Source: Spirochaetia bacterium (GTDB taxonomy: Bacteria; Spirochaetota; Spirochaetia; SZUA-6; Bin103). Taken from it: a DNA stretch of 64,000 nt. The stretch covers positions 4,257,813 to 4,321,812 of the forward strand of contig OZ241863.1 of assembly GCA_965203055.1 (NCBI GenBank), read 5' to 3'. The notes under the pieces were generated by a model that did not search any database, had not been told where the DNA came from, and saw only the letters and a list, made by a program, of their open reading frames with translations. Numbering within the stretch: the first letter of the stretch is position 1; each line of letters begins with the position of its first letter. This document shows positions 2,500 through 60,995 of this stretch, piece after piece. The position numbers were made by a program, and so were the translations under genes.

Positions 2500-2502
2500 T
2501 AA

Positions 2503-2826
2503 GCTCGGTCCGGCAGGTGCTGCGGCGGATCATCGGCTTGCTGCCACTTGCCGCGCCGGCTGCTGAGCAGAGATGACCGCCCTGTTCGGCGGCCGCCTTC
2601 GCCAACGCGCGCCGCGTCACTGCCGATCACCTGCAGATGATGGCGCCGTGCCGTCGTATGAAGCAGGATCACCACGCACGATCCTCTCAGCGGGCGCCTC
2701 GCCTCGTTGCCCCCGCACGGCCGCCGCAACCTGAAGGGGCATGGCGCGCCATCGACCTGACCGTCCGGCCCTGAGTCTTGCCCGGCCGCGCGCGCCGCGG
2801 TATGGTGAATGAGGAGGCACGGACCC
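2503..2826 (+). repeat. ~300-bp promoter-bearing repeat, copy 1
   Basis: Aligns along its length with 4485..4802 and 6277..6570. Indels break every reading frame between copies. Confidence 0.9.
2778..2806 (+). promoter_or_regulatory. Repeat-borne sigma70-like promoter, copy 1
   Basis: TTGCCC (2778..2783), a 17-nt spacer, then TATGGT (2801..2806). The module is identical in all four repeat copies. Confidence 0.5.
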
Positions 2827-2892
2827 CTTGGCAGCGCAGCACGACGCGGCATGATGCGCGTCCAGCCGTTCATCAGCACCGACTGATCAAAG

Positions 2893-2966
2893 CATCCTGC
2901 CCTTCTCGCACAGGTCCCGCGGCGGCGGTACTCTTGCCGCCAGTTCGCGCGTCACTGCCTTGCCTG
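2893..2966 (+). repeat. Upstream element, copy 2 (see 107..169)
   Basis: 37/40 identity of the core to 130..169. It ends 52 nt upstream of the Uma2 ATG at 3018. Confidence 0.75.
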
Positions 2967-3017
2967 TCGCGCCGCCGCGCCGCGTGCTATGCTGCGCAGC
3001 GTCTGGAGGCGTGGTCG

Positions 3018-3710
3018 ATGGCAAGTTCACTCAGCGCTCCGCTGGCGGCGCCGGTAGCGGTAGAATACCCCAGTTCCGACGGCAAGCCGATGGCTGAAAG
3101 CGATTCCCAACGGATACCTCTGACGTACGCCGTCGACCGGCTCCGGTACCACTTCCGCAACCACGCCGACGTGTACGCCTCCGGCAACCTGCTGATCTAC
3201 TACGAGAAGGGGAGTCCGGGCGCGAGGGTGGCGCCGGACGTGTTCGTGGTGTTCGGTGTCCCCAATGTCGAGCGCTCGTCGTACCGGCTGTGGGAGGAGG
3301 GGAAGGGACCCGACTTCGTGCTGGAGATCACGTCGCGGGCGACGTGGCGGGAAGATCAGACCAAGAAGCGGGAGTTGTATCGGCGGCTGGGGGTACGGGA
3401 GTACTGGCAGTACGATCCGACGCGGGACTACCTGAAGCCGCCGCTGCAGGGGTTGGAGTTGGTGGGGGAAGATTACGAGCGGCTGCCAAGCCGGGATTTG
3501 GCGGACGGCACCCTGGCGCTGCGGAGCGAAGTGCTGGGATTGGAGTTGCGTCTGGCCGGCCGGCGGCTGCGGTTCCACGATCCGCAGACCGGAGAGGACC
3601 TGCCGGACTTGGCGGAGACCGAAGACCGACGCCGTGAGGCGGAGGCTCGCGCGGAGGCGGCCGAAGCGCGCTTGGCCGAACTCGAGGCTCTTCAGCGACA
3701 ATCAAGATGA
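3018..3710 (+). CDS. Uma2 family endonuclease (DUF820)
   Basis: ATG at 3018 inside ORF 2778..3710. Shows YPSSDGKPMAESDSQ, ...APDVFVVFGV, ...PDFVLEITSRATWREDQTKKRELYRRLGVREYWQYDP (PD-(D/E)xK core) and a coiled-coil tail. The N-terminal ORF extension lies in the repeat and was rejected. Confidence 0.85.
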   Translation: MASSLSAPLAAPVAVEYPSSDGKPMAESDSQRIPLTYAVDRLRYHFRNHADVYASGNLLIYYEKGSPGARVAPDVFVVFGVPNVERSSYRLWEEGKGPDFVLEITSRATWREDQTKKRELYRRLGVREYWQYDPTRDYLKPPLQGLELVGEDYERLPSRDLADGTLALRSEVLGLELRLAGRRLRFHDPQTGEDLPDLAETEDRRREAEARAEAAEARLAELEALQRQSR

Positions 3711-3984
3711 GAATCCACTGCGAACGTCGACCGAACGCCACCGAGCGGGTGACGGTCAAGTGATCCATCAAGAGGGCCGCCCCGGAGTACGGTCACGATC
3801 ACCCCTCCGTAACCCCGCAGGCGGCATAGCTCACGCCACCCCGCATCGCCCAAGACAAGCCGCCATACGCCCCGGCCGATTTTAGTGTCCCGCAAGAGCG
3901 CAGGGAGGCATACATGAAGAAGCCGGAGTACCCGCGGGCGTGGCAGAGAGCCACTACCGCCGCCGAATGTCACACGCTTGAATC

Positions 3985-4490
3985 GCCCTCGATGTGGTCG
4001 GCCAGAAGGACGGCGAGATGTTTGACGTCGGCTTGTTCTTCGCTTGTAACGATTCGAAGCACGATTCGAAGAACGGTTGCCTCTACGTGTTCGCGACGAC
4101 GCGCGATCGCGTCAAACCCTACGACAGCGACGCCGTGAGCATCGTCGCCAACTTCGCTCGACTCCGTAGAAACGAACAAGAGGAGATTCTGACAGAAACG
4201 GAGCAGTTTCTGGACGAACGACGCGCCTTCGTCCGTTCTTCTCACGGCTACCGTATCATGCGCAGGAGCGATGTCAGAGGAGAAGTCGGTGTCTACTCCT
4301 GGCGCTGTCGTATGGATTCCCTGCGCCGGGAGATGGGCCGTCTCCATACCTTCATCAGGCAGGAAAAGCCATACTTCGTCGAGGGTCTGATCGATCCGAG
4401 AGACCTGTTCCGCATCTTCATCGTGCAGCCTCGCCGGCTGTTTCCTCGCCTCAGAGCGCCAATGCGCGCCGAAGAGAACGAGTGCGCTCG
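3985..4490 (+). pseudogene. FRG-domain protein gene fragment (retains the middle part)
   Basis: Encodes ...LDVVGQKDGEMFDVGLFFACND...CLYVFATTRDRVKPYDSDAVSIVANFARL..., then runs into the repeat without the FRG C-terminus. The N-terminus is missing. It shares flanks with 2170..2499. Confidence 0.45.
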
Positions 4491-4802
4491 GTCGGCAGGT
4501 GCTGCGGCTGATCGTCGGCCTAGTGCCACACCACCGCGCCGACTGCCGAGCAGAGCTGACCGCCTTGTTTCGGCGGCGGCCTTCGCCAACGCGCGCCGCG
4601 TCACTGCCGATCACCTGCATGGCGCCGTGCCGTCCGATGAAGCAGGACCACCACGCACGATCCTCTCAGCCGGCGCCTCGCCTCGTTGCCCCCGCACGGC
4701 CGCCGCAACGTGAAGGGCCATCGCGCGCCATCGACCTGACCGGCCCTGAGTCTTGCCCGGTCGCGCGCGCCGCGGTATGGTGAGTGAGGAGGCACGGACC
4801 CC
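4485..4802 (+). repeat. ~300-bp promoter-bearing repeat, copy 2
   Basis: Aligns with copies 1 and 4. It ends with the promoter module, GAGGAGG, and the ATG of the next gene. Confidence 0.9.
4753..4781 (+). promoter_or_regulatory. Repeat-borne sigma70-like promoter, copy 2
   Basis: TTGCCC, a 17-nt spacer, then TATGGT. The SD GAGGAGG is at 4786..4792 and the ATG at 4803. Confidence 0.55.
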
Positions 4803-5228
4803 ATGGCGCTCACCGATACTGACCTGCAAGTCGTGGTCGAGCATGTCAAGCGCATGCTGCCGGCCATGCTGATCGAGACCGCACCCCTCAGCCATCTTCA
4901 GGGTGACGCATCCGCAACAGCGCCCGGCAACTACGCCGAGGAGCACTTGGCGCGGTTCGAAGAACGCACGGCGCAGGAGTTCAAGGCCCTCCGCGAGTTG
5001 ATGCAAGCGGGCTTCGCGGCGGTGGACAAGCGTTTCGAGGACATGAACAAGCGTTTCGAGGACATGAACAAACGCTTCGAGGAGATGAACGCCAACATCG
5101 ACAAGCGCTTCGCGGCGGTGGACAAACGCTTCGAGGACATGAACAAACGCTTCACCGCGATCCAGTGGATGGGCACCGTGGCGTTCGTGGTCCTCGGCGT
5201 CATCATCTCGGTCGTCGGGCTCTCGTGA
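4803..5228 (+). CDS. Tail-anchored coiled-coil protein with NKRFEDM heptad repeats (P141)
   Basis: Strong SD and ATG. Has a ~75-aa N-terminal domain, then DKRFEDMNKRFEDMNKRFEEMNANIDKRFAAVDKRFEDMNKRF, then a C-terminal TM segment WMGTVAFVVLGVIISVVGLS. It is a paralogue of 6571..7092. Confidence 0.8.
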   Translation: MALTDTDLQVVVEHVKRMLPAMLIETAPLSHLQGDASATAPGNYAEEHLARFEERTAQEFKALRELMQAGFAAVDKRFEDMNKRFEDMNKRFEEMNANIDKRFAAVDKRFEDMNKRFTAIQWMGTVAFVVLGVIISVVGLS

Positions 5229-5497
5229 CCAGCACCTGAGCAGAGCTGACCGCCCTGTTTCGACGGCCGCGCCCGCCAACGCGCGCCGTGTCACTGCCGA
5301 TCACCTGCGGATCATGGCGCCGTGCCGTCAGACGAAGCAGGACCATCACAAGCACGATCCTCTCGGCCGGCGCCTCGCCTCGTTGCCCCCGCACGGCCGC
5401 CGCAACGTGAAGGGCCATCGCGCGCCATCGACCTGACCGACCGGCGACCGGCCGGCGCTTGAGCCTTGCCCGGTCGCGCGCGCCGCGGTATGGTGGC
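5225..5497 (+). repeat. ~300-bp promoter-bearing repeat, copy 3 (5'-truncated)
   Basis: Starts within the stop codon region of P141 (TGACCAGCACCTGAGCAGAGCTGACCGCC) and aligns with the 3' ~270 nt of the other copies. Confidence 0.85.
5466..5494 (+). promoter_or_regulatory. Repeat-borne sigma70-like promoter, copy 3
   Basis: TTGCCC (5466..5471), a 17-nt spacer, then TATGGT (5489..5494). Confidence 0.5.
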
Positions 5498-5655
5498 CGA
5501 GGCGCGGATAACCCATGGGCGGATCGGCCACCACCCTGCGGGTGTACGTCTGTTTCCAAGGCGATAGCCTGAAGGCTGGTCTCGTCACCGGGCATCGGCA
5601 GAGAGACGGTTGAACCGGCACCACCCAATACCAGCCGGCAACCGGGGGGCACACC

Positions 5656-6138
5656 ATGGCGGTAATCGACTGGGTAGCGGTAGGAACCCCCATAGTGGCG
5701 ATGGTGGGAATGTTCGGCATGATGCTGAAGGTCCTCGGTTCGCTGAACAAGAGGTTCGACGACATGAACAAGAGGTTCGACGACATGAACAATAGATTCG
5801 ACGACATAAACAGGAGATTCGACGACCTGAAGGACTCTCTGAACAAGAGGATCGATGATCTGGCCACCGGCTTGAACAAGAGGATCGACGATCTGGCCGC
5901 CAGCTTGAACAAGAGGATCGACGATCTGGCCGCCGAGGTGAAAGACATGCACCAAGAGGTCCGTTCGATAGACAAGCGGATGGTTCATCTTGAAGGAAGG
6001 ATGGACAGTCTGGAAGGGCGTCAGAGCAGGGAGCCGGGAGCGATGAGGCCGGTGCCGGTATCTGGTGTGGAGAGACCACTCACCCCACCGCCCCCTTGGC
6101 AGCAGGAGGAAGCGGAGACAGGCGCAGCAGCCCGGTAG
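5656..6138 (+). CDS. N-terminally anchored coiled-coil protein with NKRFDDM / NKRIDDL repeats (P160)
   Basis: N-terminal TM segment VAVGTPIVAMVGMFGMMLKVL, followed by NKRFDDMNKRFDDMNNRFDDINRRFDDL and three 11-residue units (xxxLNKRIDDL). It uses AGG/AGA Arg codons, unlike P141 and P173. Confidence 0.75.
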   Translation: MAVIDWVAVGTPIVAMVGMFGMMLKVLGSLNKRFDDMNKRFDDMNNRFDDINRRFDDLKDSLNKRIDDLATGLNKRIDDLAASLNKRIDDLAAEVKDMHQEVRSIDKRMVHLEGRMDSLEGRQSREPGAMRPVPVSGVERPLTPPPPWQQEEAETGAAAR

Positions 6139-6276
6139 TATCGCCTGCTGCTGGCGCACGTGGCGGAGCGCATGAACCGCAAGAAACGGGAAAGCACAAT
6201 TGCCCTGCCATCTCGCCGAACGGAACAAGAAAATCGGATCTACTGACGACTCCATGAAGTGACGTATTCCCCGTAA

Positions 6277-6570
6277 GTGCTGCGGCCGATCATCGACTTG
6301 CTGCCACGGCACCTCGTCGAGCTGACCGCCCTGTCGGCGGCCGGCGTTCGCCAACGCGCACCGCGTTCCTGGCGATCACCTGCAGATCATGGCGCCGTGC
6401 GTCGGATGAAGCAGGACCACCACGCACGATCCTCTCGGCCGGCGCCTCGCCTCGTTGCGCCCGCACGGCCGCCGCAACCTGAAGGGCATGGCGCGCCATC
6501 GACCTGACCGGCCCTGAGTCTTGCCCGGTCGCGCGCGCCGCGGTATGGTGAGTGAGGAGGCACGGACCCC
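6277..6570 (+). repeat. ~300-bp promoter-bearing repeat, copy 4
   Basis: Aligns with copies 1 and 2. Its 3' end is identical to copy 2 through the SD and ATG. Confidence 0.9.
6521..6549 (+). promoter_or_regulatory. Repeat-borne sigma70-like promoter, copy 4
   Basis: TTGCCC (6521..6526), a 17-nt spacer, then TATGGT (6544..6549). GAGGAGG follows, then the ATG at 6571. Confidence 0.55.
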
Positions 6571-7092
6571 ATGGCGCTCACCGATACTGACCTGCAAGTC
6601 GTGGTCGAGCATGTCAAGCGCATGCTGCCGGCCATGCTGATCGAGACCGCACCCCGCAGCCATCTTCAGGGTGACGCATCCGCAACAGCGCCCGGCAACT
6701 ACGCCGAGGAGCACTTGGCGCGGTTCGAAGAACGCACGGCGCAGGAGTTCAAGGCCCTCCGCGAGTTGATGCAAGCGGGCTTCGCGGCGGTGGACAAGCG
6801 TTTCGAGGACATGAACAAGCGTTTCGAGGACATGAACAAACGCTTCGAGGACATGAACAAACGCTTCGAGGAGATGAACGCCAACATCGACAAGCGCTTC
6901 GCGGCGGTGGACAAACGCTTCGAGGACATGAACAAACGCTTCGAGGAGATGAACGCCAACATCGACAAGCGCTTCGCGGCGGTGAACAAACGCTTCGAGG
7001 ACATGAACAAACGCTTCACCGCGATCCAGTGGATGGGCACCGTGGCGTTCGTGGTCCTCGGCGTCATCATCTCGGTCGTCGGGCTCTCGTGA
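6571..7092 (+). CDS. Tail-anchored coiled-coil protein with expanded NKRFEDM repeats (P173)
   Basis: The N-terminal 75 aa are nearly identical to P141 (PLSH vs PRSH). The repeat block is 32 aa longer and the C-terminal TM segment is the same. Confidence 0.8.
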   Translation: MALTDTDLQVVVEHVKRMLPAMLIETAPRSHLQGDASATAPGNYAEEHLARFEERTAQEFKALRELMQAGFAAVDKRFEDMNKRFEDMNKRFEDMNKRFEEMNANIDKRFAAVDKRFEDMNKRFEEMNANIDKRFAAVNKRFEDMNKRFTAIQWMGTVAFVVLGVIISVVGLS

Positions 7093-7135
7093 CCAGCACC
7101 CGAGCAGAGCTGACCGCCCTGTTTCGACGGCCGCG
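7090..7135 (+). repeat. Stub of the ~300-bp repeat (copy 5)
   Basis: TGACCAGCACCCGAGCAGAGCTGACCGCCCTGTTTCGACGGCCGCGCC matches the start of copy 3, after which similarity stops. Confidence 0.8.
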
Positions 7136-7217
7136 CCTGTCCGCCGGGTGAACCCGCTCGCCGCGGGAACGGCGCATACTTGACGGCGGCGGCGGAGCGG
7201 TCCAATCTGAAGCAGGC

Positions 7218-14035: not shown

Positions 14036-14933
14036 TTGCCGCGCGACACGCACGAGGCGCCGTTGGAACCGGGCGGCGCCGCCCGGCGGGGCGCGCGCGG
14101 CCGGCAGCGGGAGGGCGCTTCCTTCCCGGCGCCGCCGGCCAAGGTCCGACTGCCGGCGAGCTATGCCGCCGCCGTCAGCGAGATCAAGCGGCGCATCGGC
14201 ACGCAGCGCCTGGGCGTGGTGCTGGCCGCAAACGAGGCGCTGGTGTTGTTGTACTGGGACGTTGGGCGGGCGATCCTGGAGCGGCAGCAGCGCTCGGGCT
14301 GGGGCGCCAGGATCATCGACCGCCTGTCCCACGACCTGCGCGCCGCCTTCCCGGAGATGCGCGGGCTGTCCGCCCGCAACCTGAAATACATGCGCGCCTT
14401 CGCCGCCGCGTGGCCCGACCGCTCAATTGTGCAACAGGCTGCTGCACAAATTCCGTGGTCCCACAACGTGATCCTGCTGAACAAGCTCAAGGACGCCCGC
14501 ACCCGTCTCTGGTACGCCCGCAAGGCGCGCGAGCAGGGCTGGAGCCGCAACGTGCTGGCCATGCAAATCGACGCGAGACTGCACGAGCGGGAGGGCATGG
14601 CGGTCACCAACTTCGCCGCCACCCTGCCGCCGGGCGACTCCGACCTGGCGGCGCAGGTGTTCAAGGACCCGTACCTGTTCGACTTCCTGGGCACCGCCGC
14701 CCCGCGCACCGAGCGGGAGATCGAACAGGCCCTGGTCGATCACCTGCAGTCGTTCCTGTTGGAACTGGGCGCGGGATTCGCGTTCGTCGGCCGCCAGGTC
14801 CTGCTGGAGGTGGGAGACCGCGACTACTACGCGGGAGACGCGCCTGGTGGACTCGCTGCCGCAGGAGCTGCGGGGCAGCCTGCCGACCATCGAAGAGATC
14901 GAAGCGGAGCTGAACGGCCCGGAACATGAATGA
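14036..14933 (+). pseudogene. YhcG-like (DUF1016) PD-(D/E)xK nuclease gene with internal deletion and frameshift
   Basis: The N-terminal and middle regions are intact (NEALVLLYWDVGRAI, LSARNLKYMRAF, ...FAFVGRQVLLEVGDRDYY). The nuclease core is then absent, and the usual C-terminus (ETRLVDSLPQELRGSLPTIEEIEAELN) continues in another frame to a stop at 14931..14933. Confidence 0.6.
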
Positions 14934-15400
14934 TGCGGCCTGGGATGTCTGCACTCCCGATCGACAAAGGCCGCATGTTCCTCCCAAGCTAGCCTACGAG
15001 CAAGACTCTATTGAGCTGCTAAAGGTGTATTTGGCGTTCGCAGAAGAATTCGAAATCCGCCCACCATACTACGTGTTTCTGTCATTCCTTGGGGTCAGAG
15101 GATGCGAATTTGGCGTTAAGAAAGCCCTCTAAACATGCTCATATCCTAGAGGAAGATATGCTGATTCTTCCGGAAGTCGTTATTCAGGACCGCGATGAAC
15201 AGCCACACCAAGCCCTGAGGAAGGCATTTTGACATGGTATGGAACTCTTTTGGGTTCATAGGATCACGGAACTACGACGATAGCGGAACTGGAAGTCTGG
15301 CTAGCACGAGAGAGCTATGGCCGCGGCACCCGTCCACCACCGAGATTAGCGACCACTCATTCACCGCCGAGCAGACGGTGGATCGTCCATCCATGGCTCC
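14926..15400 (+). other. Low-GC decayed coding remnant of unknown family
   Basis: GC drops to ~50% by eye. Peptide pieces are spread over three frames (..IRPPYYVFLSFLGVRGCEFGVKKAL / HAHILEEDMLILPEVVIQDRDEQPHQALRKAF / MVWNSFGFIGSRNYDDSG), which suggests a frameshifted gene. Confidence 0.3.
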
Positions 15401-15402
15401 GG

Positions 15403-16975
15403 GGCGCATTTCCAAAATGTAGGTTAAGTTAAGCGTCAGGCCGCTTGGTGGCCAAGCCCAAATTCCTAGTGTGAAGATGACGTTTCTCGGCGATCTTGAA
15501 TCACCGGTCTACGCGTTCGGCAACGGGGCTGAACGGAACCGGCGCCTGGCGATCCTCGCCGGGGCGGCCGAATCCGGCGCCGACATGGCGGTAGCGGTGA
15601 TGGGCGGCGCACAGCAGCCTGAGATTGTTCGGCTCGGCGGCGCCGCCGCAGGCATACGGCACGACGTGATCGATCTGCAGCAGGTGTTGGGAGCCGCAGC
15701 GGCGCCCGCTGGTGCGGTCCACGTAGCGGCAGCGGCCCCGGTCGCGCCGCCAGACCTCGCGCTTGACCGCCGCCGGGATGGCGCGGCCGGTCACGCCGGT
15801 CTTCGCTGCCGAAGTCCGAGTCCGCGGCGGCGCAGCCGGCTGCGCGCACGCCGTCGCAGCCTGCCGGCCGAGGCGCCGCGTCTTCGGCGCCGAAGTTGCG
15901 TCGCACGCCGGCTTCGCTGCCGAAGTGTCCGGGCGGTCAGCGGCTTCGTCTCCCGGCTGCGCCGCCGCCTGAGCCGATACTTTCGCCGCCGAAGGAGCGG
16001 CGCTGTCCGCGCTGGCCTCCTGCTTCGCTGCCGAGGCAGCGAAGCGAGCCGAGGCCGGCTGCGTCTTCGGCGCCGAAGTTTGCTCGGCGCCTTTGGCCGG
16101 CGCGGCGCGCCGCCCGCTCGGCGGACGGGCCGGGTCGTGGCGGTCGAGCCCTTCCCGCACCAGCCGCGCCATGAGCTGCCCCAACGTCAGGTGCGGGTCG
16201 ACGTGGGACAGGAGGCCCTTGAGCCGCTCCAAGCCGCGCCGGCACTCATCGTCGATCACCGCCTTGAGTTCCCAGCGCCCGCCGCCCAGGGGCCGCACCC
16301 GATCCGCCGGCGCCGCCAGCTCCGGGTCCACCTCGGCCAGCATCTGCATCACCTCCCGGCTGCTCTTGCCGGACGCCTGCTCCACCAACTCCCGCCGCGC
16401 CTCCGAGTCCAGCACCGGCGCGGCCGCCGGCTTCCGCTCCGCCGGCCGCAGCGGCGCGGCGCCCTCCTGCGACTGAGCGGCAGCCCCGAACCCGGTCCCG
16501 CCCGGCGCGCTACGCGCCGCGCGCTCCTTCTTGCGCTCCTGCCGGTCGAACGCGTGCTGCAACTGCGCCGCCGCGTTCAGCGTCATCGAGCCATTCTGCA
16601 GGCGCTCGCGGACGCCGTCGACGTCCGCGCAGAGCCGCATCGCCTTGATGCGCCGCCACGCTGCGGCGTCGCTGTAACCCAGTTCGCGCACCGCGTAATC
16701 GAACAGACTCGAGAACCCGCGGCGCAAGTATAGGCGGCGCTTCTGGATCTCGCGCAGGTGGTCGATCACGACCACTTCGAGATGGTGTTCGATGCCGGAA
16801 AGTTCCTTGGTCCGCTCCAGCAGATGGTCGTCTGAGAGGGCGGATACGGTAGTGGTGACGGCCTCGTCGGAAGCATGTTGGTTCATGACATAAGTATAAT
16901 CATGGAAACTACTTGAGTCAATTTTTCGGGCCGGAATATGCCACCTGCCGGCGTGACTCGGCGGCGCATTTCCAA
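15403..16975 (-). mobile_element. HNH-endonuclease unit, copy 1, bounded by 13-bp direct repeats
   Basis: GGCGCATTTCCAA occurs at 15403..15415 and 16963..16975 (reverse complement of TTGGAAATGCGCC). Similarity to the second unit (59459..60995) starts and stops at these repeats. Confidence 0.65.
15501..16886 (-). CDS. HNH endonuclease (DUF222-like N-terminal region)
   Basis: ATG at 16886 (MNQHASDE). C-terminal HNH motif RCRYVDRTSGRRCGSQHLLQIDHVVPYACGG...NLRLLCAAHHRYRH. A low-complexity (T/A/P)SA(A/P)K linker is present. Confidence 0.85.
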   Translation of the reverse strand: MNQHASDEAVTTTVSALSDDHLLERTKELSGIEHHLEVVVIDHLREIQKRRLYLRRGFSSLFDYAVRELGYSDAAAWRRIKAMRLCADVDGVRERLQNGSMTLNAAAQLQHAFDRQERKKERAARSAPGGTGFGAAAQSQEGAAPLRPAERKPAAAPVLDSEARRELVEQASGKSSREVMQMLAEVDPELAAPADRVRPLGGGRWELKAVIDDECRRGLERLKGLLSHVDPHLTLGQLMARLVREGLDRHDPARPPSGRRAAPAKGAEQTSAPKTQPASARFAASAAKQEASADSAAPSAAKVSAQAAAQPGDEAADRPDTSAAKPACDATSAPKTRRLGRQAATACAQPAAPPRTRTSAAKTGVTGRAIPAAVKREVWRRDRGRCRYVDRTSGRRCGSQHLLQIDHVVPYACGGAAEPNNLRLLCAAHHRYRHVGAGFGRPGEDRQAPVPFSPVAERVDR

Positions 16976-16996
16976 GCGGTTTGACCAATGACTCCT

Positions 16997-26024: not shown

Positions 26025-26735
26025 ATGCAGCCGCTACGGATAGCAACGGTAGAGGACCTGGTCCACGTTTTGGACGAGCACCCGCACTGGCTGGAGGCGG
26101 TGCGGTCGCGGCTGCTCACGCGCGAGTTGCTTGAGCTTCCGCAGAAGCTGGCGGAGTTCGCGGCCGACACCGAGCGCCGATTCGAGACGCTGGAGCGCCG
26201 ACTCGAAGCTCTGGAGCGCCGATTCGAGGCGCTGGAGCGCCGACTCGAAGCTCTGGAGCGCCGATTCGACGCGCTGGAGCGCCAACTCGACCAGCTCCGC
26301 ACCGACGTTGCTCCCCTCAAGGCCGCCCACGCCAGGAACGAGGCCCGGCACGAAGCCGATCTGATGGCGGAAGAGCAGGGTCTCACGCTCGTCCATACCC
26401 TCGACCGGGAAGAGATTCGGGACCTGGTACGATCCTCCGACACCGACGGCATCTCCAAGCACGAGCTGCGCAGTTTTCGCTTGGCGGACATCGTGCTGCG
26501 CGCAACCGATAGTGCGGGAGCGGAGTGCTACCTGGCGGTGGAGGTCTCCTACACCGCCAACGGCCGCGACACCTCTCGGGCACAGCGCAACGCGCGCTTC
26601 CTGACCCGCTTTACCGGCCGGCGCGCGTATGCCGTGGTGGCCGGTCTGCGGTTCGACGAGCGTATTCGCCGCAGCGTGGAGTCAGGCGCGATAGCGTGGT
26701 ATCAACTGGACCCTGAAGCCCTGGAAGTGGACTGA
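26025..26735 (+). CDS. Coiled-coil (RRFEALE heptads) protein with a PD-(D/E)xK-like C-terminal domain, unknown function
   Basis: Six 21-bp units at 26172..26297 encode RRFETLE RRLEALE RRFEALE RRLEALE RRFDALE RQLDQL. The C-terminal ...ADIVLRATD...CYLAVEVSYTANGRDTSRAQRNARFLTRFTG resembles a conserved family I recall from cyanobacteria, Chloroflexi and Thermus. Confidence 0.7.
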   Translation: MQPLRIATVEDLVHVLDEHPHWLEAVRSRLLTRELLELPQKLAEFAADTERRFETLERRLEALERRFEALERRLEALERRFDALERQLDQLRTDVAPLKAAHARNEARHEADLMAEEQGLTLVHTLDREEIRDLVRSSDTDGISKHELRSFRLADIVLRATDSAGAECYLAVEVSYTANGRDTSRAQRNARFLTRFTGRRAYAVVAGLRFDERIRRSVESGAIAWYQLDPEALEVD

Positions 26736-57738: not shown

Positions 57739-57824
57739 CCAACCAGCGCAGGTTGAGTCGAGTCAAGTCTGCTGAGTCTTGTCTTGGCAGGCGCCGCTAT
57801 ACGTGCTATCTTCTTTCATTATCG

Positions 57825-59288
57825 ATGGGACATACGTGGGACTTCATCCGTGATTACGAGACGGACCCGTCTCAGCTCGCCCAAGTGGAACTGAAATATC
57901 TGGCTGCGGTATGGCAGGACCATCGCCAGCGGCTGGAGAATCAGGATGCATTCATCCAGTTCAATCAGAGGCTGCTTCGCGAGTGGTCCATAGAAACCGG
58001 TCTGATCGAGCGGCTGTACGTACTCGACCGCGGCGTCACCCAACTGCTGATCGAGCGAGGAATAGATGCGGCTCTGATCCCGCACGGAAACGGCCAGCAT
58101 CCGGCGTCGGTGGCAGCCATGATCCAGGATCACCAGGCGGCGGTGGAGAGCGTCTTCAGATTCGTCAAGAATGAGCGGCCGCTTTCCACGAGCTACGTCA
58201 AGGAGATGCACGCCGTCATCACCCGCAACCAGCAGGGAACGGACGCGGCAGATGCCCGGGGCCGGATCTCACAAGTCCCATTAATTCACGGTGACTACAA
58301 GAAATGGCCCAACAATCCCAGCCGCCCCGACGGCTCGGTTCATCAATACTGTCCACCCGAGCACGTTGCGGCCGAAATGGATCGACTCATCGAATTACAC
58401 CACAGCCACGTGAACACTGCGCCCGAGGTCGAAGCTGCGTGGCTGCATCATCGATTCGCACAGATCCACCCGTTTCAGGACGGCAACGGTCGTGTCGCCC
58501 GAGCTCTCGCCACCTTGGTCTTCGTAAAGTCAGGGTGGTTCCCTTTGGTGGTAAGGGACAAAGACCGTAAACGGTATCTGGATGCCCTGGAGTCTGCCGA
58601 TAGCGGGGATCTTGGCGAACTGGTCACGTATTTTGCCAACCTGCAGAAGGACGAGTTCGTCAATGCTCTCACCATCGCTCGGGACGTTCTGCGATCCGCC
58701 CGTGCGGAGCAAGCGATAGCAGCCGTGCGCCGCCAGTTGCAACGCCGCCGCGACTCCATGGTGAAGGAGTGGGGGAAGGCCCGCAACGTTGCGGGAGCAC
58801 TCCGCGAGACCGCCCAGAGCCGTTTGCAGCAGGTATGCGACCGACTGCAGCTTGACGTGCAGTCTCTTCTCGGGAAGGCTGCCTTCTTCGTGGACGGCGA
58901 CACCGACCACGGAGGAAAGAGTCACTACTTCGCTCGACAGATCGTGGAGGCTGCGAAGCAGATTGGCTACTACGCCAACCGTGAGACCTATCGATCATGG
59001 ACAAGATTGGTTATGGAAAACGGGGACGCCACCGACCGCACGGAACTCCTGGTCTCCTTTCACGGTCTTGGTTGGGAATTCCAGGGCGTCCTCGCCTGTT
59101 CGGCGGTCTGCTTTCAGCGCAGTGAAACCGATGGTGGAGAACGTCAACTCACCGCCGGCGAACCGGTGTCGGACGGGATGTTTCAGATAAACTACAAGGA
59201 ACCGATCGAAGAGGCCGGAAGGCGATTCCTCGTCTGGTTGGAACCTGGCATAGTGCGCGCAGTGGAGCTCTGGCAGGAGACGCTGTGA
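57825..59288 (+). CDS. Fic family protein with a ~200-aa C-terminal extension
   Basis: ATG at 57825 within the composite 777-aa ORF. Fic motif HPFQDGNGRVARAL. GC is lower than the flanks. Confidence 0.8.
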   Translation: MGHTWDFIRDYETDPSQLAQVELKYLAAVWQDHRQRLENQDAFIQFNQRLLREWSIETGLIERLYVLDRGVTQLLIERGIDAALIPHGNGQHPASVAAMIQDHQAAVESVFRFVKNERPLSTSYVKEMHAVITRNQQGTDAADARGRISQVPLIHGDYKKWPNNPSRPDGSVHQYCPPEHVAAEMDRLIELHHSHVNTAPEVEAAWLHHRFAQIHPFQDGNGRVARALATLVFVKSGWFPLVVRDKDRKRYLDALESADSGDLGELVTYFANLQKDEFVNALTIARDVLRSARAEQAIAAVRRQLQRRRDSMVKEWGKARNVAGALRETAQSRLQQVCDRLQLDVQSLLGKAAFFVDGDTDHGGKSHYFARQIVEAAKQIGYYANRETYRSWTRLVMENGDATDRTELLVSFHGLGWEFQGVLACSAVCFQRSETDGGERQLTAGEPVSDGMFQINYKEPIEEAGRRFLVWLEPGIVRAVELWQETL

Positions 59289-59399
59289 CCGACCGCTGAC
59301 TCCGGCGCCCCCGCCGAGGCGTGAGCCGGGCCACATGACCTGTGCCCCGGCGGCGGGCGTGCAGATGGGACGCCCCATCCGGTGGGCTGGGGCGCGGCG

Positions 59400-59429
59400 G
59401 CGCGATGGGTCTGCTCGGACCCATCGCGC
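59400..59429 (+). terminator. Perfect 12-bp stem hairpin downstream of the fic gene
   Basis: GCGCGATGGGTC-TGCTCG-GACCCATCGCGC. No U-tract, so its function (terminator or recombination site) is uncertain. Confidence 0.35.
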
Positions 59430-59458
59430 GCCTGGGGCTAATGGACATGGCCAGCCGC

Positions 59459-60995
59459 TTGGAAATGCGCCGCCGAATCACGCCGGCAGGTGGCATCTTA
59501 CGGGCCGGAAGAACTTGACTCAAGTAGTTTCCATGATTATACTTATGTCATGGACAAACATGCTTCCGACGGGGCCGTCACCACTACCGTTTCCGCCCTC
59601 TCAGACGACCTCCTGCTGGAGCGGACCAAGGAACTGTCCGGCATCGAACACCATCTCGAAGTGGTCGTGATCGACCACCTGCGCGAGATTCAGAAGCGCC
59701 GCCTGTATCTGCGCCGCGGGTTCTCGAGCCTGTTCGATTACGCGGTGCGCGAACTGGGTTACAGCGACGCCGCAGCGTGGCGGCGCATCAAGGCGATGCG
59801 GCTCTGCGCGGACGTCGACGGCGTCCGCGAGCGCCTGCAGAATGGCATGATGACGCTGAACGCGGCCGCGCAGTTGCAGCATGCCTTCGACCGGCAGGAG
59901 CGCAAGAAGGAACGCGCGGCGCGTAGCGCGCCGGGCGGGGCCGGGACCGGGGCAGCCGCTGAGTCGCAGGACGGCGCGGCGCCGGCGCGGCCGGCGGAGC
60001 GGAAGCCGGCGGCGGCGCCGGTGCTGGACCCGGAGGCGCGGTGGGAGCTGGTGGAGCAGGCGTCCGGCAAGAGCAGCCGGGAGGTGATGCAGTTGCTGGC
60101 CGAGGTGGACCCGGAGCTGGCGGCGCCGGCGGATCGGGTGCGGCCCCTGGGCGGCGGGCGCTGGGAACTCAAGGCGGTGATCGACGATGAGTGCCGGCGG
60201 GGCTTGGAGCGGCTCCAGGGCCTCCTGTCCCACGTCGATCCGCACATGACGATGGGGCAGCTCATGGGGCGGTTGGTACGGGAAGGGCTCGACCGCCACG
60301 ACCCGGCCCGGCCGCCGCGCGGGCGGCGCGCCGCGCCGGCCAAAGGCGCCGAGCAAACTTCGGCGGCGAAGACGCAGGCGGCCTCGGCTCGCGGCGCTGC
60401 CTCGGCAGCGAAGCAGCAGGCGAGCTCGGACAGCGGCGCTCCTTCGGCGGCGAAGGTATCGACTCAGGCGCCGGCGCAGCCGGGAGACGAAGCCGCTGAC
60501 CGCCCGGACACTTCGGCAGCGAAGCCGGCGACCGACGCCACTTCGGCGCCGAAGACGCAGCGCCTCGGCCGGCCGGCTGCGGCGTGCGCGCAGCCGGCGG
60601 CGCCGCCGCGGACCCGGACTTCCGCAGCGAAGCCGGACGTGCCCGGCCGCGCCATCCCGGCGGCGGTCAAGCGCGAGGTGTGGCGGCGCGACCGGGGCCG
60701 CTGCCGCTACGTGGACCGCACCAGCGGGCGCCGTTGCCGCTCCCAACACCTGCTGCAGATCGATCACGTCGTGCCGTATGCCTGCGGCGGCACCGCCGAG
60801 CCGAACAATCTGCGCCTGCTGTGCGCCGCCCATCACCGCTACCGCCACGTCGGCGCCGGATTCGGGCGCCCCGGCGAGGATCGTCAGGCGCCGGTAGACC
60901 GGTGATCAAGATTCGCCGAGAAACGTCACCTTGCACTGGGACTTGGGCTTGGCCGCCAAGCGGCCTGACGCTTACCTACATTTTGGAAATGCGCC
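59459..60995 (+). mobile_element. HNH-endonuclease unit, copy 2, bounded by 13-bp direct repeats
   Basis: TTGGAAATGCGCC at 59459..59471 and 60983..60995. The leader, ORF and trailer align with 15403..16975 in inverted orientation. Confidence 0.65.
59550..60905 (+). CDS. HNH endonuclease (DUF222-like N-terminal region)
   Basis: ATG at 59550 (MDKHASDG). Roughly 90% identical by eye to the 15501..16886 product and has the same HNH motif. Confidence 0.85.
   Translation: MDKHASDGAVTTTVSALSDDLLLERTKELSGIEHHLEVVVIDHLREIQKRRLYLRRGFSSLFDYAVRELGYSDAAAWRRIKAMRLCADVDGVRERLQNGMMTLNAAAQLQHAFDRQERKKERAARSAPGGAGTGAAAESQDGAAPARPAERKPAAAPVLDPEARWELVEQASGKSSREVMQLLAEVDPELAAPADRVRPLGGGRWELKAVIDDECRRGLERLQGLLSHVDPHMTMGQLMGRLVREGLDRHDPARPPRGRRAAPAKGAEQTSAAKTQAASARGAASAAKQQASSDSGAPSAAKVSTQAPAQPGDEAADRPDTSAAKPATDATSAPKTQRLGRPAAACAQPAAPPRTRTSAAKPDVPGRAIPAAVKREVWRRDRGRCRYVDRTSGRRCRSQHLLQIDHVVPYACGGTAEPNNLRLLCAAHHRYRHVGAGFGRPGEDRQAPVDR

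Follow-up and report, generated by a model that had tools for sequence, protein, structure and literature searches.

The 64,000-nt stretch of Spirochaetia bacterium contig OZ241863.1 analyzed here (the window) contains two copies of an HNH endonuclease gene, each carried by a unit of about 1.55 kb with the 13-mer TTGGAAATGCGCC at both ends. The copies are designated wA (minus strand) and wB (plus strand), and L-numbers denote the related loci with which they were compared. We favor, with moderate confidence, the explanation that both window units have lost their left end, are probably immobile, and belong to the youngest subfamily of a 1.7- to 1.9-kb insertion sequence (IS)-like element of high-GC Spirochaetia. 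The comparison established the repeat architecture of this element, the 8-bp duplications that flank it, unoccupied targets devoid of the 13-mer, and the decay of the window copies by deletion.

Terminal repeats, target duplications and unoccupied sites

The 13-mer had four exact matches in the window, and still four when one mismatch was allowed, versus 0.08 expected by chance; none of 100 shuffles reached four. The earlier note on this DNA was correct in placing the same 13-mer at both ends of both HNH copies, about 90 nt upstream and 80 nt downstream of the gene. The left 13-mer of wB ends 78 nt before the ATG (91 nt start to start), and 77 nt lie between the stop codon and the right 13-mer, the corresponding distances in wA being 76 and 85 nt. 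Its view that similarity begins and ends at the 13-mer has to be amended, since on the left the similarity runs 4 to 10 nt further (CCAGCCGC in wB; GTCAAACCGC in wA versus GTCCAGCCGC in the family), and on the right the common block is the entire 23-mer CCTACATTTTGGAAATGCGCC, with which the similarity ends. The two units are in opposite orientations and 92 to 95% identical over about 1.55 kb (94% for the HNH genes), and are each other's only partners within the window. Scanning of 294 kb, comprising the window and 230 kb of related loci, located every 13-mer (≤1 mismatch) at one of three canonical element positions and detected no solo copy. The 13-mer is thus not a frequent word, a finding that the earlier note had named as one that would refute its unit, and is confined to the elements in these sequences.

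The ends of the element were defined by related copies that are longer than those of the window. In L002, L023, L031, L032, L033, and L035, homology continued for 90 to 400 bp to the left of the internal 13-mer and stopped at GGGCGCACTTCCAAATTGTTGGTA, which is the 13-mer in inverted orientation (the left repeat). An extension beyond the internal 13-mer was also present in L022 and L024, and full-length relatives reach 220 to 400 bp further left than the window copies. About 20 of the 23 positions of the left repeat agree with the reverse complement of the right end (GGGCGCATTTCCAAAATGTAGGTA), and a 23-mer scan of 273 kb (≤6 mismatches, both strands) gave matches solely at the right- and left-repeat positions. 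Both terminal inverted repeats were found in the full-length copies L023, L031/L032, L035, and L033, and the left end only in L002; wA and wB have the right repeat only, no left inverted repeat being detected in the window. Generic inverted-repeat finders missed these ends, which differ by 3 to 6 mismatches or indels, and were swamped by GC-rich noise. The right terminal repeat thus has the right 13-mer as its core, and the left 13-mer represents a third copy, which is internal and in direct orientation. The 13-mers proposed by the earlier note as element boundaries thus include one true end, the right one, whereas the left one is internal in most relatives.

Target duplications of 8 bp directly abut both ends at three independent loci and differ from one locus to the next. 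The duplication is perfect in L031 (AGGTCAGG) and has one mismatch in its ortholog L032; it reads GCGGCATG versus GCG-CATG in L035, and GCGGCAAT, with a 6-nt slip on one side, in L023. The flanks of wA and wB revealed no convincing target duplication. The full element is therefore 1.7 to 1.9 kb long and has terminal inverted repeats and 8-bp target duplications.

Two unoccupied targets were recovered. In L025, an allele of the wB locus, the sulfatase and ABC-transporter genes are directly adjacent, both the Fic gene and the HNH element being absent, and the junction contains no 13-mer. L001 and L023 represent the same locus in two genomes, and L001 retains the uninterrupted target of L023 (...GCGTAAATTGCCGCCTCGG...), with ATTGCCGC present once at its X'-A junction; the L023 target reconstructed in this way contains no 13-mer either. 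The 13-mer is confined to the elements and absent from unoccupied targets, indicating that it is element sequence rather than target. Two proposals of the earlier note are not supported by these results: the 13-mer is not a duplicated target, the real duplications being 8 bp long and locus specific, and it is not a preexisting homing target. Neither the empty nor the reconstructed site retains the single 13-mer that the note suggested looking for. L025 and the reconstructed L023 target had no clear motif in common. Strains are polymorphic for presence or absence at the wB locus. In the search for an empty site of wA, two flanking proteins had no record, and the one ortholog located, L036, still has the element, with its right repeat deleted.

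The surroundings of wB are themselves variable. A 3.26-kb block (57739-60995) comprising the Fic gene (57972-59288; PADLOC SoFic, E = 2e-25) and the HNH element is common to the window, L022, and L024, and is replaced in L025 (1770-1812) by about 45 unrelated nucleotides. The gene order sulfatase-Fic-HNH recurs at another locus, L031/L032. In L022, the Fic gene is interrupted by an IS256-family element (Transposase_mut, positions 723-2122) flanked by a 9-bp duplication, CGTTTGCAG, and absent from the window allele. This IS256-like element was rejected as a trans-mobilizer of the HNH element, its ends being GAGATAT... and its only 13-mer-like word being internal. The 45.6-kb segment between the outward-facing right repeats (15403-60995) was also considered as a composite transposon and rejected, since its flanks match at 6 of 8 positions only and in L025 the sulfatase gene, which belongs to the segment, is joined without interruption to the ABC-transporter gene, which lies beyond it.

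A captured gene fragment and decay by deletion

The translation of the left segment resembles the C terminus of a larger protein, with more than 1,000 protein matches at 67 to 89% identity, many of them containing PF20466, the MmeI target-recognition domain. The assignment to the MmeI family relies on these PF20466-containing homologs, Pfam, NCBIfam, and PDB sequence searches with the fragment itself having returned nothing. The fragment contains many frameshifts and deletions of varied size, and the left segment thus reads as the 3' pseudogene fragment of an MmeI-type restriction-modification gene. In L032 and L002, tblastn placed the start of the MmeI-type homology at the first base internal to the left repeat, and it begins at the inner edge of this repeat in every full-length copy, indicating that the composite formed once and was then transposed as a unit. 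The best 120 matches to the fragment (P0270-P0389) are all short open reading frames (ORFs) of 122 to 224 amino acids, at 67 to 89% identity, from many metagenomes; one is labeled Chloroflexota, and no full-length enzyme occurs among these 120. One of them, P0270 (180 amino acids), reads through the position that the left repeat occupies in the element and has the same C terminus as the captured fragment. It is unusual for an orphan C-terminal piece of a type IIL restriction gene to be so widespread and well conserved, and such a piece may point to a recurrent site of splitting or insertion.

Decay of the element by deletion is evident from allelic comparisons. The wB locus exists as three alleles: relative to the window, L022 contains 151 nt more of the captured fragment, and L024 has a different deletion, of 118 nt. 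The 151-nt deletion of wB lies between two similar 11-mers. In L036, the ortholog of wA, the left edge is as in wA and the right repeat has been lost. At least seven independent deletions were counted among 13 copies. A diverged left repeat was considered for the L022 flank and dismissed, alignment and tblastn having revealed a truncated MmeI fragment, with local flank for the remainder.

The HNH gene, its relatives and competing explanations

Positions of the features of wA and wB are compiled in Table 1. The promoter, which is kept in all subfamilies, ends so close to the ATG that the HNH mRNA is probably leaderless. The internal 13-mer lies about 40 bp upstream of this promoter. Pfam HNH (PF01844) is the sole Pfam domain of the wA and wB proteins (E = 3e-6 to 9e-6). 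The earlier note had assigned these proteins to the DUF222 type; neither wA nor wB matched DUF222 (PF02720) at E≤0.01, nor did the N-terminal 261 residues at E≤10. One of 26 diverse homologs had a weak DUF222 match (E = 0.0014), and remote homology is possible on this basis. An AlphaFold2 model (mean predicted local distance difference test [pLDDT] score of 74) comprises two helical N-terminal domains, a disordered linker of about 95 residues, and the HNH domain. The N-terminal helical domains had no PDB match, and the HNH domain resembles those of McrA, Gme-HNH, and IscB/Cas9 (Foldseek). Throughout the family, the catalytic H/N/H residues (including the histidine numbered H406 in the family comparison) and the Cys ligands are conserved. 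The nine subfamily-1 ORFs tested were all intact, with ratios of nonsynonymous to synonymous substitution rates (dN/dS) of 0.22 to 0.64 (0.22 to 0.52 for wA versus other copies).

Relationship to RNA-guided nucleases was also evaluated. NCBIfam guided_IscB scored 22 to 23 bits, versus a cutoff of 175, over the HNH segment only, and the HNH protein contains no RuvC domain. Rfam returned nothing above threshold and one sub-threshold small RNA, and the folded 3' segment of wB was no more stable than shuffled sequences (z = -0.4). A guide RNA or other structured RNA was rejected on the basis of the Rfam search and this fold test.

Table 1. Coordinates of the 13-mer and of the features of the wA and wB units in the window
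Feature	Position	Strand	Evidence or remark
13-mer sites	15403-15415, 16963-16975, 59459-59471, 60983-60995	-, -, +, +	Window scan
wA right terminal inverted repeat (IRR), 23 nt	15403..15425	-	Consensus GGCGCATTTCCAAAATGTAGGTA, 1 mismatch; outer 13 nt (15403-15415) are the 13-mer of the earlier note
wA 3' untranslated segment with short GC hairpin GCTTGGCC/GGCCAAGC	15426..15500	-	Common to wB and subfamily-1 relatives
wA ORF, 461 aa, C-terminal HNH (residues ~396-433)	15501..16886	-	Pfam PF01844, E = 3e-6; intact
wA promoter, TTGACT-17-TATACT, ends 6 nt before ATG	16893..16921	-	Direct reading; kept in all subfamilies
wA left edge, internal 13-mer (16963-16975) and 10 element-derived nt GTCAAACCGC	16963..16985	-	Identical left edge in ortholog L036
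wB left edge, CCAGCCGC and internal 13-mer (59459-59471)	59451..59471	+	Comparison of window, L022, and L024 alleles; end point of the 151-nt deletion relative to L022
wB leader and sigma-70-type promoter (TTGACT 59515-59520, TATACT 59538-59543)	59472..59543	+	Promoter scan, 10/12 matches
wB ORF, 451 aa, C-terminal HNH	59550..60905	+	Profile search, structure model
wB 3' untranslated segment	60906..60972	+	Shared with wA; RNA fold tested
wB right terminal inverted repeat, 23 nt	60973..60995	+	Exact consensus; outer 13 nt are the 13-mer of the earlier note; L025 homology resumes directly after
Six near-palindromic 14-mers CTTCGGCNNCGAAG in the disordered linker of the wB ORF	60358..60632	+	wA counterpart 15801-16078

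The gene belongs to a large and widely distributed family. The complete chromosome of a Spirochaetia metagenome-assembled genome, OZ241907.1 (4.1 Mb), contains at least 10 copies at 76 to 87% protein identity, ENA assemblies encode more than 120 proteins with >78% identity, several contigs each having many copies, and a library-wide search returned 15,576 clusters at 50% identity. The paralogs form a star-like set at about 94% identity. More than 10 unrelated loci, distributed over several genomes, have this architecture, in agreement with the proposal of the earlier note that the HNH gene resides in a discrete, multicopy, and evidently mobile unit. A phage or plasmid origin was rejected, there being no tblastn match in 72,556 plasmids and no match in IMG/VR.

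In the full-length form of the element, the left inverted repeat GGGCGCACTTCCAAATTGTTGGTA is followed by 90 to 340 nt of the MmeI-type pseudogene fragment, then by CGTCCAGCCGC together with the directly oriented internal 13-mer, about 42 nt of leader, the TTGACT-17-TATACT promoter, and a probably leaderless HNH ORF, and finally by a 3' segment of about 70 nt and the right inverted repeat ...TACCTACATTTTGGAAATGCGCC(C). Mobility would depend on a transposase-type reaction in which a protein recognizes the 14-mer at both ends and inserts the element at staggered 8-bp cuts, and the internal copy of the 13-mer would be a putative subterminal binding site or the scar of an end. Supply of a conventional transposase in trans, the element then being a mobile insertion cassette with the HNH gene as selfish cargo, is a tentative but tangible possibility. 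It is rather doubtful that the HNH protein itself is the end-recognizing nuclease, the remaining probability being assigned to repair- or recombination-based routes. We regard as unlikely the more specific proposal that the HNH protein, with its helical N-terminal domains, is a mobility enzyme recognizing the GGGCGCAYTTCCAA 14-mer at both ends and at one subterminal site.

Several observations weigh against the reading of the window units as truncated copies of a transposon. The element has no match to a known transposase class in Pfam or NCBIfam, the HNH ORF is its only intact ORF, and the AlphaFold2 model contains no RNase-H-like fold. A partner IS with the same ends was not seen, and no target duplication flanks the full-length copy L033. 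Of six left-side breakpoints, five (those of wA, L001, wB, L033, and L034) lie 0 to 11 nt from the internal 13-mer, a clustering that random deletion alone leaves unexplained. The left edge, which is identical in wA and L001 at 10 to 11 nt from the 13-mer, coincides with that of subfamily 2 (GACCAGC), so that the short form could represent the ancestral state and not a truncation. Copies L003 to L009 share only the promoter and ORF with wB (blastn), with ragged ends and no 13-mer, so that the existence of gene copies without a flanking 13-mer, which the earlier note held would refute its unit, is verified for these divergent copies only. A distant clade from Joint Genome Institute (JGI) sediments (L013-L019) likewise conserves the promoter, leader, and ORF only, between ragged ends. 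Since the terminal repeats occur in only one subfamily, the gene family apparently also spreads, or once spread, without them. Finally, all comparison loci are metagenome assemblies, in which repeats may be mis-polished.

Two of these concerns, the edge coinciding with that of subfamily 2 (shared by wA/L036 and L001) and the clustering of rearrangement breakpoints at the internal 13-mer, would be accounted for if the unit between the direct 13-mers were the primary mobile entity, moving by 13-mer recombination or by cleavage and joining via a circular or head-to-tail intermediate, with the inverted-repeat composite being secondary. In comparison to subfamily 2, in which GACCAGC-TTCT-GCCGAGAC replaces the GTCCAGC-CGC-13mer-GCCGAGTC of subfamily 1, the latter seems to have acquired CGC and the 13-mer through a small insertion. 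The L034 copy has a junction at which about 33 nt of sequence from near the right end passes via a single 13-mer into the leader, as expected from a circle or tandem dimer generated by 13-mer × 13-mer recombination. However, L034 is a mosaic whose 3' region matches the L005 lineage, from another subfamily; its junction may thus stem from ordinary recombination between copies, and a circular permutation of the unit was rejected. The short form has the 13-mer at both junctions, yet the 13-mer is absent from the empty and reconstructed targets and never occurs alone in the 294 kb scanned. Moreover, 10 nt of element-derived sequence lies outside the left 13-mer, which is not expected from recombination within the 13-mer, no recombinase is encoded, and wA is without a clear flanking duplication, L001 being flanked instead by a direct duplication of about 58 nt of its target. 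We consider movement of the short unit improbable.

We attach a similarly low probability to a free-standing selfish gene resembling those of homing endonucleases, in which breaks made by the HNH protein would allow the promoter and ORF to spread ectopically by break repair or gene conversion, the repeats being incidental to one lineage. Conservation of the catalytic and Cys residues, the very large size of the family, and the retention of only the promoter (or promoter and leader) and ORF, with ragged flanks, in all subfamilies and in the distant clade are in keeping with such a gene. So is the position of L001, which is inserted no more than 4 nt from the L023 site and is oriented oppositely, although the two elements, at 94.3% identity, are no closer than any paralog pair. 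Orthologous elements (wA with L036; wB with L022, L024, and L029) are 96.2 to 98.3% identical, versus 96.3 to 99.6%, mostly about 99%, for their flanks. An excess of this kind (3 to 4% divergence in the elements versus 0.5 to 1% in the flanks) is the pattern expected from conversion between paralogs; it indicates either such conversion or consensus errors in the assembly and polishing of a repeat present in 10 to 20 copies. Homing of this type leaves unexplained why a terminal inverted repeat matching at 20/23 positions is directly adjoined by 8-bp duplications at three loci, and the empty sites revealed no conserved cognate target. Ordinary segmental duplication, with the 13-mers arising by chance or as microhomology, would fit the fact that wA and wB have no other partner within the window. 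We give this last explanation next to no credence in view of the number of exact 13-mers, the recurrence of the same architecture at more than 10 unrelated loci in several genomes, and the polymorphism of strains for its presence or absence. The IS-like element with left-truncated window copies remains our preferred reading.

Neighboring features, known systems and significance

Additional repeats were noted in the window and at related loci. The 14-mer CTTCGGCNNCGAAG gave 18 strand-matches in the window, versus 0.84 expected, 17 of them inside the two HNH ORFs. Its copies encode repeated T/P-S-A-A/P-K motifs in the disordered linker (pLDDT <50), and the motif is also present in the 63%-identical copy L010; the runs may have a role in the DNA or RNA (5-bp stem, 4-nt loop) or in the protein, as a peptide repeat. 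Next to wA, a gene encoding a DUF1016/YhcG (PDDEXK nuclease) protein (14036-14951) is broken: in comparison to the intact 368-residue gene of L036, the window is without 236 nt within the gene and 919 nt downstream. Four paralogous cassettes at 2500-7140 (repeat families D2-D7, 70 to 99% identical), which have no relationship to the HNH element, carry tandem coding repeats of 21 nt in their ORFs (15 copies of AACAAGCGTTTCGAGGACATG and its variants), and a second array of 21-nt coding repeats (GAGCGCCGATTCGAGACGCTG, 5 copies) is present at 26172-26311. The HNH copy of L034 lies between two tandem paralogous AAA_14/DUF4143 ATPase genes, whose start regions (CATGACATTTTAGAAA.NGATTTCT.TTTTGCAAGA) are repeated on both sides of it (L034 positions 2780-2860 and 4560-4640). 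As a pair, wA (15403-16985) and wB (59451-60995) form 1.5-kb inverted repeats of 94% identity and are a ready substrate for inversion of the 42.5-kb segment between them.

The best-known genes of comparable architecture are those of the REP13E12 or "13E12 repeat" DUF222-HNH family of Mycobacterium tuberculosis (Gordon et al. 1999, cited in PMC10589994; PMC13157036), which resemble the HNH gene of the window in being multicopy genes of about 1.4 to 1.5 kb scattered on the chromosome and encoding a helical N-terminal region and a C-terminal HNH domain. The 13E12 genes are found at large inversion breakpoints (PMC13157036), and copies of both types qualify as recombination or inversion substrates, wA and wB being inverted with respect to each other and 42.5 kb apart. 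The window proteins differ in lacking a Pfam DUF222 match, which was weak and limited to 1 of 26 among their relatives, and the host belongs to a Spirochaetia lineage rather than to the actinobacteria. In the literature searched, neither terminal inverted repeats nor target duplications were reported for REP13E12, and repeat genes of the HNH or DUF222 type were not described as having ends of this kind; they are defined here for the HNH element.

Non-autonomous IS derivatives with cargo, such as mobile insertion cassettes and elements resembling miniature inverted-repeat transposable elements (MITEs), form the natural comparison class. The HNH element resembles them in its short terminal inverted repeats, its fixed 8-bp duplication, the absence of a recognizable transposase inside it, and the presence of a captured host-gene fragment beside one end and of an extra internal copy of the end. 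It differs from them in that no partner IS with the same ends was found and in that the cargo ORF is intact, under purifying selection, and preceded by its own promoter in every copy examined, features more typical of a gene proper to the element than of a passenger. IS200/IS605 elements are not known to carry terminal inverted repeats or to duplicate their targets. ISC elements, which encode IscB and belong to the IS200/IS605 superfamily (PMC4810608), are, like the HNH element, multicopy, transposase-less, and equipped with an HNH-containing nuclease, whereas the HNH element has neither a RuvC domain nor an Rfam guide-RNA family. Free-standing HNH homing genes of phages (PMC12724721, PMC11855218) are similar in consisting of a single selfish HNH gene with its own promoter and in showing signs of exchange between copies. 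Unlike the HNH element, which occupies more than 10 chromosomal loci with unrelated flanks, they have one cognate site, spread by flank homology, and have no inverted repeats or target duplications.

Multicopy HNH genes of this architecture are very common, and they are usually left annotated as "HNH endonuclease" without a defined element structure or mobility mechanism. The lineage described here is young, with about 6% divergence between copies, and its ends are therefore still readable. The 23-bp inverted repeat, the 8-bp duplications, the captured fragment, and the internal copy of the end provide a testable transposon model with a candidate protein-binding site; they also illustrate that truncated copies of an element can mimic units bounded by direct repeats and mislead a reader. 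If the HNH protein were the mobility enzyme, it would represent an HNH transposase class outside the DDE, DEDD, HUH, serine, and tyrosine classes, and would offer the first mechanistic handle on the multicopy state of DUF222/13E12-like HNH genes, which form more than 15,000 clusters at 50% identity.

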